64,000 nucleotides of DNA from NCBI GenBank assembly GCA_041650995.1, contig JBAZJZ010000001.1, forward strand, positions 149,757-213,756, given 5' to 3'. A program made the translations under genes and the position numbers. Within the stretch, counting starts at the first letter, position 1. Each line of letters starts with the position of its first letter. Origin of the DNA: Patescibacteria group bacterium (GTDB taxonomy: Bacteria; Patescibacteriota; Patescibacteriia; XYB2-FULL-38-15). The notes beneath the pieces are model-generated. The model was given only the letters and a program-made list of their open reading frames with translations, was not told the DNA's origin and did no database searches. This document shows, one piece after another, positions 13,419-19,213 of the stretch.

Positions 13419-13830
13419 TACTTGTTAAGCTGAAATAGGCTTAAAGATTAAAAAAAGTGCTTGTCGTGCTGGAACAGATGCGCTTCGCGCGCTGTTCTCC
13501 TACGAATTACGAATCTATTACGAATATACGAATAGATTACGCACATTGAAAAAAGTGCCAGAGAAACTTGGAGGAGGAAAGTCTTCGTGAACCATTAATT
13601 GGTAACCACGAGACCCGGCATGAGGTTCAATTAAATTTCGGTGTCCGTCCTGCGGATTACTAAAAGTTAATTGACCAAAATGCCACCGGCCAGTCCTGTG
13701 TTATCAGGACAGGCCAACTCACCTCCAAATTCCTCTGGCACACTCCGTAGAATCGGAGAGCCAAAGGTCAGATCGTGGATGGTTCCCGGTCTGATTTTTC
13801 ATAACTGCCAAGAGAAGAAGGAGATTGGAT

Positions 13831-14910
13831 ATGGCGGAAGCGACGAAGATCGTCCCGGTGCCGGCAGGCACCCTGACCGACGAGGATTACGAGGAAATGA
13901 TCGTCGCCGCCATGCCGTCTCCCGTGGAGACGCAGGTGGCGCCGACCCTGGTCGTGACCGAGCCGGAGAAGCCGGCCGAGCCCAAGAAGCGGCGGGTTTG
14001 CAGCAAGTGCGGCCACCACGACGGGAACAGCGTCGGCAGGATCAGGCGTGGTCGACTGGCCGAGAAGTGGGACAAGGAGCGGGGCATCAGGGTGTACTAC
14101 GTCGATTGGTTCTGCCAGCCCTGCCTCGACCGCGAGTCCGAATTGCTCGAGCTCGAATGCGATCCGCGTCCGGTCGGCAAGGGCGGATACCTCATCGCCC
14201 TTTGCGGCCTCCGGAACAAGGAGGAGGCCGAGCGCTACGCCGCTCGGACCGCCAGGGAGCGGTACCAGGTGGCGAAGGCCACATGGCTCGCCATCCTGGC
14301 GGGCGAGAAGCCCTTCCTCGAGAACGTCGAGAGGGAGACGGGGTGCTGCGAGTTCGGCGGCTGCGACACCGAAGTGGACGCCGAGGTGTTCGCTGTCGTG
14401 AACGGCCAGCTTCGCCGCTTCTGTCGCCTCCACGCCGAGACGCTGCGGGAGATCAAGGTGAAGGGGCGGAACAAAGACCCGCGCCTCATGGCCTGGCGAG
14501 GTCCGGAAGCTGAGGCCAAGTGCCAGCGGCACTTGGCCTGGCTCAGGCACCAGGCCAAGGAAGCCGAGCGCCGCGCGACCCCGGCGAGCCCCGAGTTCGT
14601 CGATCGTCTGAAGGGCGTCTTCGACCGTCGCTCCAACGATGAGCGCAAGGCCGACAGGAGCGAGGCGTCTCGGACCGCCAAGGAGCGGCAGGCGGCCTAC
14701 GCCGCGGCGCTTCGGAACGGCGGGAGCCTCGCTGACGTCGTGTCCGTGTCCGAAGAGACGGTCGAGACCAGGGACGACGGCTCGGATCCGGTCTGGGCCG
14801 AGATCGTCGCCCACAACCACGCGGTCGACGCCCGCTGCGCCGGCAAGCGCAAGAAGGGTGGCGGCAAGAAGGACGGCAAGGACAAGGGCGGCAAGAACAA
14901 GCGCCGCTAG
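13831..14910 (+). CDS. high-GC ORFan: Cys-cluster (Zn-binding-like) protein with lysine-rich C-terminal tail
   Basis: AAGGAG RBS 13817..13822, ATG 13831. ~65 % GC with G/C at ~90 % of third positions in this frame only; the minus 13768..14952 and other-frame ORFs are shadows. CSKCGHH...CQPC and CCEFGGCD...C clusters. KRKKGGGKKDGKDKGGKNKRR tail. Confidence 0.7.
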   Translation: MAEATKIVPVPAGTLTDEDYEEMIVAAMPSPVETQVAPTLVVTEPEKPAEPKKRRVCSKCGHHDGNSVGRIRRGRLAEKWDKERGIRVYYVDWFCQPCLDRESELLELECDPRPVGKGGYLIALCGLRNKEEAERYAARTARERYQVAKATWLAILAGEKPFLENVERETGCCEFGGCDTEVDAEVFAVVNGQLRRFCRLHAETLREIKVKGRNKDPRLMAWRGPEAEAKCQRHLAWLRHQAKEAERRATPASPEFVDRLKGVFDRRSNDERKADRSEASRTAKERQAAYAAALRNGGSLADVVSVSEETVETRDDGSDPVWAEIVAHNHAVDARCAGKRKKGGGKKDGKDKGGKNKRR

Positions 14911-15300: not shown

Positions 15301-17025
15301 ATGAAGTGGAAAATTGCTGAACAAATCAATGGGGAGTTTAAAAATAAATTTCCGGAGATTGATCCGGTGATTTTGCAATTACTGGCAAATCGGGGAATTA
15401 AAACTCAGGAGCAGATTGACGAATTTTTATATCCTGATTACAGCCAGGATATTCATGATCCATATCTTTTTTTAGATATGGAAAAAGCAGTGGAAAGAAT
15501 TTTTTTGGCTTTAGAAAAAAAAGAAAAAATAATAGTACACGGCGATTACGACGCTGACGGAGTTTGTTCGGCGTTAGTTGTGGTTTCTACTCTTTTAGCT
15601 ATGGGAGCTGATGTTCAGGTTTATTTGCCTCATCGCGAACTTGAGGGTTATGGATTGAATATGCAGACTGTGGAAGAACTTGGAAAAAATGGAGTGAATT
15701 TAATTATCACAACAGATTGTGGCATTAGCAATCGTCTGGAAATAAAAAGAGCTGCGGAACTTGGGATAGACGTAATTATTACCGACCATCACGCCGAGCC
15801 CCCGAATTTGCCGGAAGCGGCGTTTGCGATTATTGATCCGCACCTTTCTCGTGAGAAATATCCATTTCGCGACTTGGCTGGGGCGGGAGTTGCTTTTAAA
15901 TTAGTTCAGGCGATTTTAAAAAGTCCACAGTTTAAATTCGGCGGTTTGCAGTTTGACCCTGAGGCTTTTGAAAAATGGTTATTGGATTTAGTAGCAATTG
16001 CTACGATTACTGATATAATGCCTCTTTTGGGAGAAAACCGGACTTTGGTAAAACATGGGCTTTTGGTTTTAAATAAAACTCAGCGCATTGGTTTAAAAAA
16101 ATTAGTTGAATCGTTGGGATTAAATAAAAATAAAGATCTTGATGCGAAAAATGTTGCTTTTCAAATTGGACCGCGCCTTAACGCCGCTGGCAGAATAGAT
16201 CATGCTAATCAAGCGTATGAACTTTTAAAAATCGATGATGTGGTTGAAGTCCAAAATTTGGTTGACGCCCTAAATAAAACAAATGAAGGCAGGCAAGGTT
16301 TAAGCGAGCGCGTGATGGCCGAAGCCAAGGCGCAAATTGGGGAAGATATTGGCGAGCAAAAAGTTTTATTTGCAAAAGGCGACGGGTGGCCGGTTGGGAT
16401 TGTTGGTTTGGTTGCAGGGAAAATCGCTGAAAATTTTTGGCGACCGACTTTTATTATGACAGAGAGAGAGGAGGATATAATGGGTTCTGGCAGAAGTATT
16501 CCAGAGTTTGATATTACAGAAGGGCTTCACGAGGCAAAAGATTTTTTATCTCATTATGGCGGACACGCCGGCGCTTGCGGCTTTACTTTAAAAAATAAAA
16601 AAGATTTAAAAAAATTTGAAAAAATATTGAAAAAATTTGTGGAGCAAAAATTATCTGGATTAGAGCTTGTGCCGACATTGAATATTGATGCAGAAGTGCG
16701 TTTGGAAAAAATAAACTGGGAATTGTTTGAACTTTTGGAAAAATTTGCGCCATTTGGCAAGGCAAATGAGCGGCCGCGGTATTTAGGACGAGAATTTACA
16801 GTGGAAAGTTTTGAAAGTGTGGGGACAAATGGGAATCATCTTAGAACAAATTTGAGCCAGGGGAATGGTGTCCGAAAAAAATTTATCGGGTTTTGTTTTG
16901 GTGAGTGGTGTCGGAAATTAAAAGTTGGGGATAAGATTGATGTGGTTTTTGAGGTTGATGTTAATGAGTGGAATGGAAATAGGGAACTGCAGATGAAAAT
17001 TATTGATTTAAAATTGAGTGAATAA
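15301..17025 (+). CDS. recJ: single-stranded-DNA-specific exonuclease RecJ
   Basis: 574 aa. DHH motifs (HGDYDADGVCS, ITDHHAE), DHHA1 (GGHAGACG). Confidence 0.85.
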   Translation: MKWKIAEQINGEFKNKFPEIDPVILQLLANRGIKTQEQIDEFLYPDYSQDIHDPYLFLDMEKAVERIFLALEKKEKIIVHGDYDADGVCSALVVVSTLLAMGADVQVYLPHRELEGYGLNMQTVEELGKNGVNLIITTDCGISNRLEIKRAAELGIDVIITDHHAEPPNLPEAAFAIIDPHLSREKYPFRDLAGAGVAFKLVQAILKSPQFKFGGLQFDPEAFEKWLLDLVAIATITDIMPLLGENRTLVKHGLLVLNKTQRIGLKKLVESLGLNKNKDLDAKNVAFQIGPRLNAAGRIDHANQAYELLKIDDVVEVQNLVDALNKTNEGRQGLSERVMAEAKAQIGEDIGEQKVLFAKGDGWPVGIVGLVAGKIAENFWRPTFIMTEREEDIMGSGRSIPEFDITEGLHEAKDFLSHYGGHAGACGFTLKNKKDLKKFEKILKKFVEQKLSGLELVPTLNIDAEVRLEKINWELFELLEKFAPFGKANERPRYLGREFTVESFESVGTNGNHLRTNLSQGNGVRKKFIGFCFGEWCRKLKVGDKIDVVFEVDVNEWNGNRELQMKIIDLKLSE

Positions 17026-17028
17026 TTT

Positions 17029-17091
17029 ATGATTTATAACAAACTTCAAATTTTTACCGACGGCGGCGCGCGAGGTAATCCCGGACCGTCG
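17029..17091 (+). repeat. 63-bp direct duplicate (62/63 identical) of the first 21 codons of rnhA, creating an upstream pseudo-start
   Basis: ATGATTTATAACAAACTTCAAATTTTTACCGACGGCGGCGCGCGAGGTAATCCCGGACCGTC matches 17199..17261. Separated from it by a 107-bp GC-rich hairpin-rich spacer. Confidence 0.8.
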
Positions 17092-17198
17092 GCGCTTCGC
17101 GCCTCTTTAAAACCCCTCGGTTTTAATATTTCCGCTACGGGAAAACTGCGCTTTCCCGACCCCTTTCCCTCGGTCCGGGCGTTATTTTATTTAACATT

Positions 17199-17612
17199 AT
17201 GATTTATAATAAACTTCAAATTTTTACCGACGGCGGCGCGCGAGGTAATCCCGGACCGTCCGGCATCGGCGTTGTGATTTGGTCTGGAAATGAATTAGTT
17301 GGTCAGTATAAAAAATATATTGGCGAGGCGACTAATAATCAGGCCGAATATAAGGCGGTAATTTTGGCTCTTGAAGAAGCCAAAAAATTGAGCCCGACTG
17401 AGCTGGAATTTTTTCTTGATAGTGAATTGGTTGTGAAACAATTAAATCGTGAATATAAAGTAAAGGATAAAGAGCTGGCGCCGCTTTTTGTTCAGGTTTG
17501 GAATTTAAGTATGGGATTTAAAAAGGTGACTTTTACGCACGTGCCGCGAGAGAAAAATAAGGAAGCGGATAAATTAGTTAATGAAGCGATGGATGAGGCG
17601 ACGCGAAAGTGA
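17199..17612 (+). CDS. rnhA: ribonuclease HI
   Basis: 137 aa, TDGGARGNPGPSGIGVVI (D), NNQAEYKAVILAL (E), DSELVV (D), RNase H fold. Confidence 0.85.
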   Translation: MIYNKLQIFTDGGARGNPGPSGIGVVIWSGNELVGQYKKYIGEATNNQAEYKAVILALEEAKKLSPTELEFFLDSELVVKQLNREYKVKDKELAPLFVQVWNLSMGFKKVTFTHVPREKNKEADKLVNEAMDEATRK

Positions 17613-17632: not shown

Positions 17633-19213
17633 ATGAAACAGGCAAGAAAAATTCTTGGCGGAAAAATTTTTAAATTAGCGCTGATTTTTGTTTTTATTTT
17701 TTTAGTCGGCGCTTTTTTGTTAGTAAAAGAAAAAATTAAAGAAGTGCGGGCGGGCGAGGATGATAATGTAGCTGGCTGGGCGTGGTCGTCAGATAATTTT
17801 GGCTGGTTTTCGGCTAATTGTTCAAATTTGGGATTATGTCCTGATGTTGGGAGAATTGATTATGGAATGAATGTGGAAGATGACGGAACGGTTAGTGGTT
17901 ATCTTTGGTCAGAAAACATTGGTTGGGTACGTTTCAGCAATCCTGAAGGAGAACTTGCGCCCGGCGGGGCAATAGCCAGAGCAATTTATGATAGAGTTCT
18001 TGGCAGAATTACCGGTTGGGCAAAAGTTTTGGCATTAGGTGATGGAGGGTGGTTGAAGCTTCGCGGGCCTGACGCTGGAATGCCAGGCGGGCCGTATCGC
18101 GCGTGCGCTGATTGCCAGGATGTGGAAATTCCCGGCGATCCGCCGACAATTGATTATCAATGCAATGTTTGTTTTACTGATAAATTTCCCGATCCGTCAG
18201 AAACGGGAGTTGGGAATATTTGCGGCCAGTGTTCTAATTGTGTTCGGGGAGCGCTGGAAGATACTTGCGCGGCTTGCACCTTTTGTGATAAATACGGCGT
18301 ATCGGTTGATCGGCAAAACGGCAGAATTATCGGCTGGGCATGGAATGGAAATAATGATCCGGCGGTCGGAGTTGGATGGATCAATTTTTCACCGACTCCG
18401 GGCGGTCTTGGTTTGTCTTCGCCCTGGCTTGAAACAAAATATGGAGAAATTTATGGAAAACTTTCGGTTGAATCACCTAGCGCTTTTGTGGAATTAATTA
18501 ATAAATACAACGCGACTTATTGCATTTTATCCACGGGCGCCATTACGAATTTTAGAAGTGGCGAGGGGTGTATTAGAACACCGTTTGAAAATTTTGATTT
18601 TCCCAAGGCAGGCAATCTTTACACCAACATTTTCGGTAAAATTGACTTAGCGGGAATTTCAGCGGGAAAGTATGGGTTGGTAAAAAATATTGCGGGCGAG
18701 GCAGACATCCCGGATTTACTCGCCGGCAAGGTTTATTATAAAAATGGTGATTTAACAATTGGTGCTAAAACTTTTAGTAATGGTTCGGGACGGCAAGATG
18801 GATCGGGCCTAATAGTCGTTAAAGGAAATTTAACGATTACCGGTAATCTTTCATATCAAGCCGGGGCGGTTATGAATTTAAAAAATTTAGCTTCAGTCGG
18901 CTGGCTCGTGCTTGACGACGGTTCTAAAACAAAAGGAAAAATAATTATTAATCCGTCAGTGGAAAAATTAGTGGGGGCGTTTTACGCGGAACAAGAAATC
19001 AGCACCGGAACAACTAATAATCGTCGGACTGACCTATCCCTCACGGTTCGCGGGTTAATGTTAGCCAAAAAATTAAATTTTGAGCGGCTTTGGCAGTCGG
19101 CGGAGCGCGGTTCGGAACAGGTTATTTATGATGGCCGGGTGCTTGCCAATACACCACCCGGAATGGCCGATTTAATGAGAGCTTTGCCTATTTGGCGAGA
19201 AGCAGCGCCGTAA
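17633..19213 (+). CDS. secreted/anchored Cys-rich protein with tandem GW(A/L)W...GW..F repeats, first gene of the pilus locus
   Basis: N-terminal TM. At least 4 repeats (NVAGWAWSSDNFGWFSANC, SGYLWSENIGWVRFSN, GRITGWAKV...GGWLKL, GRIIGWAWNGNNDPAVGVGWINF). Cys block CADCQD...CNVC...CGQCSNC...CAACTFC. Confidence 0.5.
   Translation: MKQARKILGGKIFKLALIFVFIFLVGAFLLVKEKIKEVRAGEDDNVAGWAWSSDNFGWFSANCSNLGLCPDVGRIDYGMNVEDDGTVSGYLWSENIGWVRFSNPEGELAPGGAIARAIYDRVLGRITGWAKVLALGDGGWLKLRGPDAGMPGGPYRACADCQDVEIPGDPPTIDYQCNVCFTDKFPDPSETGVGNICGQCSNCVRGALEDTCAACTFCDKYGVSVDRQNGRIIGWAWNGNNDPAVGVGWINFSPTPGGLGLSSPWLETKYGEIYGKLSVESPSAFVELINKYNATYCILSTGAITNFRSGEGCIRTPFENFDFPKAGNLYTNIFGKIDLAGISAGKYGLVKNIAGEADIPDLLAGKVYYKNGDLTIGAKTFSNGSGRQDGSGLIVVKGNLTITGNLSYQAGAVMNLKNLASVGWLVLDDGSKTKGKIIINPSVEKLVGAFYAEQEISTGTTNNRRTDLSLTVRGLMLAKKLNFERLWQSAERGSEQVIYDGRVLANTPPGMADLMRALPIWREAAP

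Follow-up and report, generated by a model that had tools for sequence, protein, structure and literature searches.

The recJ–rnhA junction and its duplicated gene start

We describe a short segment and a duplicated gene start lying between recJ and rnhA in a 64-kb stretch of DNA (positions 149,757 to 213,756 of contig JBAZJZ010000001.1, hereafter called the window) from a Patescibacteria metagenome-assembled genome (MAG). The two genes were recognised from their open reading frames (ORFs) and Pfam domains: recJ (15301–17025, plus strand) encodes 574 aa with the domains DHH, DHHA1 and RecJ_OB and was also supported by synteny, and the intact rnhA (17199–17612, plus strand) encodes a 137-aa protein of the RNase HI family. 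A repeat search of the window revealed a 64-nt direct repeat (17027–17090 and 17197–17260, spacing 170), the copies of which are identical at 63 of the 64 positions (98%) and differ only by C17042 versus T17212, a synonymous change (AAC/AAT). Each copy begins 2 nt ahead of an ATG and terminates after the sequence CCGTC. A duplication of the rnhA 5' end with an upstream ATG-initiated ORF, as proposed in a first-pass annotation of this DNA, is therefore real; the span assigned to it at that time (17029–17091 and 17199–17261, 62/63 identical) included one extra mismatched base and was slightly generous. The two copies are separated by a spacer of 106 nt (17091–17196), which has a GC content of 51% compared to approximately 41% for the genome and occurs only once in the window.

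On contigs carrying the closest RNase HI homologues, the same block of recJ, rnhA and a 526-aa ORF is found. When the recJ–rnhA junction was compared among relatives, as the first-pass annotation had suggested, the insertion-free ones (L001–L007, L054 and L055/L056) were all found to read recJ-TAA-TTT-ATG-rnhA, with one copy of the repeat and no spacer. These include L001, which shares 95% nucleotide identity with the window in recJ and the downstream gene, and L002–L007, which share about 86%. The recJ stop codon lies 3 nt ahead of the copy 1 ATG in the window, an arrangement that is the same in the insertion-free relatives. The presence of a single copy without spacer in these genomes indicates that copy 1 (17027–17090, plus strand) stands at the ancestral position beside recJ and represents the displaced native 5' end of rnhA (codons 1–21), and that 170 bp were added after rnhA codon 21. 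The added segment (17091–17260, plus strand, in one of several equivalent indel placements in the alignment) is missing from the close relatives and would comprise an element together with a gene start that it carried. Copy 2 (17197–17260, plus strand) is read as this element-carried start, now the working start of rnhA, on the basis of the repeat, the alignments with L049 and L053 (see below) and the gene ends carried by other members of the family.

An element at the same rnhA codon as in the window is present in two further sequences, the independent MAG L049 and L053, a JGI metagenome contig that is unrelated and matches L049 perfectly over the aligned stretch. Their flanking genes are 82–83% identical to those of the window, so that they are more distant from it than the element-free L001 and L002. 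Their spacer is 95% identical to that of the window (102/107), a stretch that takes in the hairpin and spacer parts, which are freely variable in the family. Their copy 2 agrees with that of the window over the first 21 nt, while their copy 1 retains another natural N-terminus, MAYQ. The simplest reading of this same-site insertion is a recent arrival in at least one of the lineages, the alternative being repeated precise loss. A metagenome scan with a window-specific 21-mer gave no match, and a second scan returned L053 only.

The window RNase HI protein is 100% identical to P0001, which is annotated in a Patescibacteria MAG; exact-protein look-ups with the window RNase HI, RecJ and the product of the upstream ORF found no record.

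A structured element family with target-complementary arms

The spacer contains the 20-mer AAAACCCCTCGGTTTTAATA, which alone sufficed to retrieve a family of related sequences. It has 45 exact matches among species-representative genomes, where about one is expected by chance, and the genomes concerned are essentially all Patescibacteria MAGs, which represent many classes and hold up to 6 copies each. A covariance model (R1), built from 36 distinct cores among which the window sequence was included, identified more than 50 copies in the fetched loci, some of them diverged and lacking the 20-mer. Within the window, the model produced one match only, to the conserved family core at 17101–17168 on the minus strand (86.3 bits, E = 7e-20), the runner-up scoring 11.8 bits. 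The core measures about 70 nt and is very highly conserved across many Patescibacteria classes.

Viewed along the plus strand of the window, members of the family are arranged as a truncated gene end, the motif GTCG (in many members) with a variable hairpin, the core, an arm complementary to the target, a spacer of 0–45 nt and, finally, the intact gene. The GTCG motif marks the left terminus (17088–17091, plus strand, in the window); as judged by the locus contexts its GTC is common to the target, and the complement CGAC is present in 27 of 49 variable regions. At the other end, the short spacer between arm and carried gene start (17180–17196, plus strand), now the sequence 5' of the true rnhA start, is nearly identical in L049/L053. 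The complete unit is non-coding and about 110–200 nt long, and the one core occurs at more than 15 different targets, each time with its own complementary arm. At one locus (L014:5290-5640), two family copies stand in tandem at a distance of 137 nt, with three target copies between and around them, a case of tandem accretion. We also observed a circularly permuted form of the core (L015:4693-4773, L016:5811-5869, L026:2872-2930, L033:1-48, L038:900-958 and 2607-2665, and L043:296-351), in which stem C is open at its loop and a short link stands in place of the P1/V arms (the parts of the fold are described below).

The family is apparently undescribed. Rfam 15, searched with 2.5 kb and then with a 166-nt slice under lax filters, returned chance-level hits only and no relevant match at E <= 10, and the spacer had no match in BLAST searches of phage and plasmid records or in exact scans of viral contigs. 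The literature, which was searched for the core sequence itself as well, yielded one descriptive analogue (PMC2853133) but no account of the family.

We then consider the sequences bordering the elements. Of the 34 copies with complete flanks, 23 are bordered by a perfect repeat of 12 nt or more, compared to 2% when flanks were swapped between copies, and 11 have a perfectly complementary arm of 8 nt or more, again against 2% in the swapped-flank controls; when one mismatch was allowed, many more copies reached an arm complementarity of 9–16 bp. Across the family, the flanking repeats range from 14 to 84 nt and the arms from 9 to 17 nt. In the window, the arm comprises 9 bp and starts 8 nt after the core motif (6–11 nt in the family), its element-side strand cggtccggg (17171–17179) pairing with the target-side strand cccggaccg (17080–17088), which belongs to the last bases of copy 1. 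Both strings had been noticed in the first-pass annotation, with positions 1–3 nt off, as had their capacity for alternative pairing with either repeat copy (the second target lies at 17250–17258); this capacity is real in the sequence and follows from the arm matching a target that is duplicated.

In every case examined, one boundary of the flanking repeat coincides with a gene end. About 18 copies are located 50–100 nt downstream of a tRNA gene, and the repeat there consists of the 3' part of the tRNA, from the T-arm to the 3' end. For protein genes, the boundary is the stop codon in L014, L019, L030 and L036, and a position 2 nt ahead of the ATG in the window and L010; the geometry of the window repeat, with the intact gene on the arm side, is the same as in L010 and L035. 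The divergence between repeat copies is informative in two of these loci. At the pheT 3' end in L030 the copies differ at 10 of 81 positions, all of them synonymous, and both encode VLMGQEVAPRKKFIQVHAKQVKNLDI-stop, and at the fusA 5' end in L035 the first 21 codons show 13 synonymous and 2 non-synonymous codon differences. Such near-synonymous divergence, the mark of purifying selection, indicates that both copies were once working gene ends in different lineages, and hence that the element carries a foreign gene end and displaces the resident one. Import of a gene end would also account for similarity that stops exactly at the gene boundary. At three tRNA loci (L018:3515-3700, L028:1019-1240 and L024:4740-4991) the displaced 3' fragment ends in CCA, and the working tRNA copy has CAA after the discriminator base, so that no CCA is encoded in the imported gene end.

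The fold of the region had been put forward as a subject for prediction, and it proved significant when bounded by the arm and its target. The minus strand of 17074–17184 is predicted to form a four-way junction of P1 (arm plus target), stem C, hairpin B and hairpin V. Folded as RNA, this strand reached -47.8 kcal/mol (z = -4.1), and 0 of 200 shuffles folded as well; the z-score was -3.4 for the same strand as DNA and -3.7 for the plus strand as RNA. Arbitrary slices folded weakly (z from -0.9 to -1.8), so that significance was obtained only for the P1-bounded slice. The variable hairpin V (17091–17103, minus strand) reads GGCGC-GAA-GCGCC and holds the motif GCGAAGC; it is the hairpin ggcgc-ttc-gcgcc of the first-pass annotation, with corrected coordinates. 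Hairpin B (17107–17126, minus strand) has the form UUAAAACC-GAGG-GGUUUUAA, with a GNRA-like loop and pairs that covary in diverged members. Stem C (17138–17158, minus strand) consists of 9 bp (17138–17146 with 17150–17158), shows compensatory changes at 6 pairs across the 36 sequences, and incorporates a pairing previously noted as cggga-N9-cccg, which turned out to be part of this longer stem.

Adjacent to stem C, the stretch 17160–17168 (minus strand) mirrors the purine strand of the stem and is a candidate third strand of a triple helix. In the mirror comparison, 121 of 180 cells were identical, compared to 85.7 +/- 4.9 in shuffles, none of 5000 shuffles reaching 121. The signal peaks clearly relative to slid registers, in a set of sequences that are related and among which the register varies. 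This mirror covariation is suggestive of an intramolecular triple helix but does not amount to proof of one. With regard to strandedness, GCGAAGC occurs in 11 of 49 variable hairpins on the minus strand and in none on the plus strand, and G.U pairs number 5 on the minus strand versus 2 on the other. Targets are found in both polarities relative to the element, and the replication-strand bias, judged by GC skew, is 25:10, which is no strict rule; together, the two target polarities and the weak strand bias argue for a reaction at the level of DNA. Two resemblances are recorded as leads only: TAATATTTC at 17123–17131 (plus strand) in the core is one base off TAATATTAC, which we take to be the Rep nick site of circular single-stranded DNA viruses, and the GTCG terminus is presumably comparable to the N*GUC and GUC cleavage sites of the hairpin and hammerhead ribozymes, respectively.

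Insertion at a gene start also has a bearing on translation. Copy 1 opens a decoy ORF of 57 codons (17029–17202, plus strand; taken from the ORF list), of which 21 derive from RNase HI and 36 read through the element. Its start keeps the native context 3 nt after recJ, and its stop codon (TGA, 17200–17202) overlaps the true rnhA ATG at 17199 as ATGA (17199–17202). On the plus strand of the core, a single frame is open as far as the true start, and this open frame is used in all four 5'-end insertions examined, namely those in rnhA (window and L049), in a gene for a 371-aa ORF (L010) and in fusA (L035). Relative to the true ATG, the decoy stop is located at +1 nt in the window, -17 in L049, -12 in L010 and -4 in L035. 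No obvious Shine-Dalgarno motif is present in 17180–17196 ahead of the true rnhA start. As judged from this arrangement, RNase HI is likely to be translated by termination-reinitiation after the decoy ORF, meaning that the enzyme of this organism is now probably expressed via a 57-codon junk ORF.

A probable mobile element and the alternatives to it

Taken together, we regard it as probable that the spacer and copy 2 are a small, non-coding, site-specific mobile element, a member of a Patescibacteria-wide family, that has replaced the start of rnhA. The analysis demonstrated the insertion itself, its membership of the family, the structure, the logic of the carried gene end and the recurrence at the same site in a diverged genome. 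Of the explanations offered in the first-pass annotation, the footprint of a small inverted-repeat element came closest; a small element it is, yet it is intact, its arm is complementary to the target, and it does not have the build of a classical inverted-repeat transposon.

The proposed course of events is as follows. The element would integrate within a gene near one of its ends, such that its own copy of that end joins the working gene and the native end persists beyond the element in truncated form; in the window, integration would have taken place after rnhA codon 21, leaving the native copy 1 and bringing in copy 2. The element-borne and the chromosomal target copy may undergo a conservative site-specific exchange at the junction. 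Since no recombinase-like family recurs near the copies, the enzyme responsible for the exchange would be encoded elsewhere, outside the element. The arm would fold with a target copy into the four-way junction and thus define the site by pairing, a folding that may occur on single-stranded DNA of the minus strand.

Several observations do not sit easily with this interpretation. About a third of the family copies have no clear flanking repeat, and for copies without a nearby repeat no distant partner was found within the 8-kb loci. The window copies differ at one base, so in-place duplication at integration is possible for the window copy, and the argument for a carried gene end draws on other family members and L049. 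In L049 itself, the central 41 nt are identical in both copies and L049-specific, which requires gene conversion or crossover within the repeat; we attribute it to gene conversion. The assignment of the structured strand to minus, based on the GNRA-like loops, GCGAAGC and the G.U counts, is only moderately favoured. Of the seven circularly permuted copies, five lack flanking repeats and have an AT-rich hairpin behind them, which fits a free-standing RNA gene better. Moreover, an all-against-all BLASTP of 644 ORFs from about 4 kb around 45 copies, made in search of a recurrent neighbouring enzyme, gave housekeeping families only and no recombinase or transposase family.

This last result, together with the very high conservation and compensatory changes of the ~70-nt core across many classes, could also be explained if the core were a functional small or cis-acting RNA (regulatory, a binding fold or a ribozyme) that is kept for the benefit of the cell and spreads passively by DNA uptake and recombination, the repeats being by-products. 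The permuted copies without repeats would fit, as they precede genes and have a hairpin of their own behind them. So would most copies of the family: they follow tRNA genes or highly expressed genes in the same orientation, and read-through from these would produce a transcript of the structured strand. However, in the window, L010 and L035 this strand is antisense to the operon and a separate promoter would be needed. Several copies may occur in one genome at unrelated genes, the same site is occupied in 82%-identical genomes with a spacer that is 95% identical and takes in the non-conserved hairpin and spacer parts, and accretion has occurred in tandem in L014. Finally, passive recombination leaves the target-complementary arm unexplained. 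We therefore consider a functional RNA of this kind unlikely.

Less likely still is spread via an RNA intermediate, by which a self-cleaving or self-ligating RNA would pair with the target through its arm and then be reverse transcribed and integrated, in the manner of retrozymes or group II introns. The arm does resemble exon-binding or guide pairing, circular permutation is typical of small ribozymes, and the four-way junction has conserved purine-rich joining strands. On the other hand, no Rfam ribozyme or intron family was matched even with lax filters, and the two target polarities mean that no single RNA strand could pair with all target transcripts. The CCA on some displaced tRNA fragments, which the working copy does not have, was rejected as proof of an RNA origin, as a difference between donor and recipient alleles explains it equally well. 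In addition, Patescibacteria are reported to lack group II introns, the introns that encode reverse transcriptases (PMC13011429).

The two remaining explanations are the least probable. That the region evolved in place as a control device for RNase HI, its decoy start and structured leader acting as an attenuator or translational switch, was another proposal of the first-pass annotation, and it appears highly improbable: the stop of the decoy ORF does overlap the true start as ATGA, both copies are possible partners of the arm and the region folds stably, but the same core occurs at tRNA genes, pheT, fusA and ribosomal-protein loci, most copies being at the 3' ends of tRNA or protein genes, the closest relatives do without the element, which is hence dispensable, and the favoured folding strand is antisense to rnhA. 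The proposal is supported in part, in that the decoy stop lies on or shortly ahead of the true ATG in 4 of 4 5'-end insertions, but as a consequence of insertion and not as its purpose. Equally hard to credit is a recent tandem duplication, a scar of replication slippage or an assembly artefact, notwithstanding the close similarity of copies only 170 bp apart in a genome assembled from a metagenome, because the 106 nt between the copies belong to a multi-copy family (E = 7e-20) and are not duplicated sequence, because in other members the copies have diverged almost only synonymously and were thus imported, and because the same architecture is present in two independent assemblies of another lineage (the MAG L049 and the JGI contig L053) and at some 40 other family loci.

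If the mobile-element interpretation holds, it has consequences beyond rnhA. Patescibacteria have tiny genomes and are thought to be poor in mobile elements, a picture that would change if elements of ~110–200 nt hop between lineages into essential genes, with tRNA genes, fusA, pheT and rnhA among those hit, and leave them unbroken. The combination of one core with a target-specific arm and gene end points to site choice by base pairing, which is relevant to programmable DNA insertion. It is possible, though we put it forward tentatively and think it rather less probable than not, that the family represents a new class of programmable mobile DNA, a unit of about 110 nt whose own fold does the targeting through 9–17 bp of pairing. 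As part of the same tentative proposal, the fold would be a four-way junction with a triple-helix-like core, probably in single-stranded DNA, the carried gene end would spare the host, and the element, having no recombinase gene inside it, would be served by a Patescibacteria enzyme or by the nucleic acid itself. Annotation is misled by the decoy ORFs, truncated tRNA fragments and chimeric gene ends that members of the family produce, and their imported gene ends offer direct markers of horizontal exchange between uncultivated lineages.

Some features of the surrounding DNA should also be mentioned. The 526-aa ORF directly 3' of rnhA (17633–19213, plus strand) contains no Pfam domain and is kept in all relatives examined. 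Between rnhA and the next gene, the gap is 20 nt in the window and about 200 nt in L054:1905-2107 and L057:470-670; model R1 found no match in these two gaps. L008/L054 (OZ246416.1, 886 kb), labelled 'uncultured Gammaproteobacteria', carries a Patescibacteria-type recJ–rnhA–526-aa ORF block and a family copy, and its taxonomic label is probably wrong. Upstream of recJ, a 361-aa ORF (13825–14910, plus strand) has 68% GC in the 41% GC genome, with sharp compositional edges; its product is Cys-rich with a Lys/Gly-rich tail and no Pfam hit. It is conserved 5' of recJ in relatives (65–67% GC), but its protein is only 59% identical to that of L001, against 95% DNA identity for the adjoining recJ. 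The gene evolves fast and is alien in composition.

Comparison with known systems

Some known groups share single traits with the element. Miniature inverted-repeat transposable elements (MITEs) are likewise small, non-coding, multi-copy and non-autonomous, and are characterised by inverted repeats of their own sequence at both termini and by a target duplication that is short and constant in length. The element was rejected as a MITE, as its termini (GTCG at one end, a variable spacer at the other) form no inverted repeats and its flanking repeat is 14–84 nt, variable and bounded by a gene end. The bridge RNA of IS110/IS1111 elements offers a likeness in that the target is chosen through pairing with a segment in the non-coding end of the element. 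Bridge RNAs have two binding loops, the recombinase is encoded in the same element, and no long target repeat is known to arise. No bridge-type recombinase gene was identified beside the family copies, where no protein family recurs and the neighbouring ORFs were not individually annotated.

A group I or II intron or a known self-cleaving ribozyme was rejected too, given that Rfam gave no match and that the element is too short for either intron class; the group I introns described at position 35/36 of Patescibacteria tRNAs (PMC13011429) are unrelated to it. Nor is this the repeat pair of a diversity-generating retroelement, since the single mismatch is C versus T and adenine-focused mismatches are absent. 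In the position of its upstream stop codon, which overlaps the start or lies within a few nt of it in the window, L049, L010 and L035, the arrangement resembles ATGA-type translational coupling as far as the reading frames suggest. The upstream 'gene' here is, however, a by-product of insertion (21 native and 36 read-through codons) and no functional cistron.

Closer in nature are folded single-stranded DNA substrates. Integron attC sites, the CTX-phage attP(+) site, and the ends of IS200/IS605 elements and their small derivatives (PATEs) are small, non-coding, hairpin-rich DNAs that act on one strand, and IS608 selects its cleavage site through a short guide that lies beside a hairpin and base-pairs with the site. 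The element shares the small size, the lack of coding capacity and the hairpins, and its stem may mimic or read the target, which we regard as a lead. These substrates are not known to leave target repeats of 14–84 nt or to carry a gene end, and the IS608 guide is 4 nt compared to the 9–17 nt of the arm. No Y1/HUH enzyme, Xer recombinase or integron integrase was linked to the family among the neighbouring ORFs, which were not individually annotated. Descent from IS200/IS605 as a PATE, which would imply no target duplication, a fixed target of 4–5 nt beside one end and a Y1 transposase in the genome, was rejected in view of the long repeats; GTC(G) is shared at the junction in many copies.

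The closest parallel is with phages, integrative and conjugative elements and genomic islands that use tyrosine integrases, which target tRNA, tmRNA or protein gene ends. As in these, a carried copy of the gene end keeps the gene intact while the displaced native end stays as a partial copy, the repeats extend from the crossover to the gene end (evidenced by the window, L030 and L035), the T-loop and 3' regions of tRNA genes are favoured, and tandem accretion occurs. Integration repeats that run from the anticodon loop to the 3' end are on record (PMC2853133). The differences are that integrase islands and phages are kilobases long and bring their own integrase, whereas the element is ~110–200 nt and non-coding with only 106 nt between the repeats in the window, and that one core is used at more than 15 targets with an arm for each, which an attachment site read by a protein would not allow.

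A further analogue is 'insertion with long target duplication' (Nobusato et al. 2000; Furuta et al. 2010, PMC2853133), a term for inserts that have no mobility gene and are flanked by long, variable target repeats of >30 bp; such inserts were recognised because the site was empty in a compared genome, and most of them came from naturally competent bacteria (PMC2853133). The window has all of these traits, namely no mobility gene, a repeat longer than 30 bp and an empty site in relatives, but the term denotes a descriptive class and not a family. Its members are restriction-modification cassettes of several kb with no shared non-coding core and no described arm, and in contrast to the present family, none has been reported in which one repeat copy is a diverged allele. 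On balance, we file the element as a variant of the site-specific integrative elements, with a real possibility that it represents a new class.

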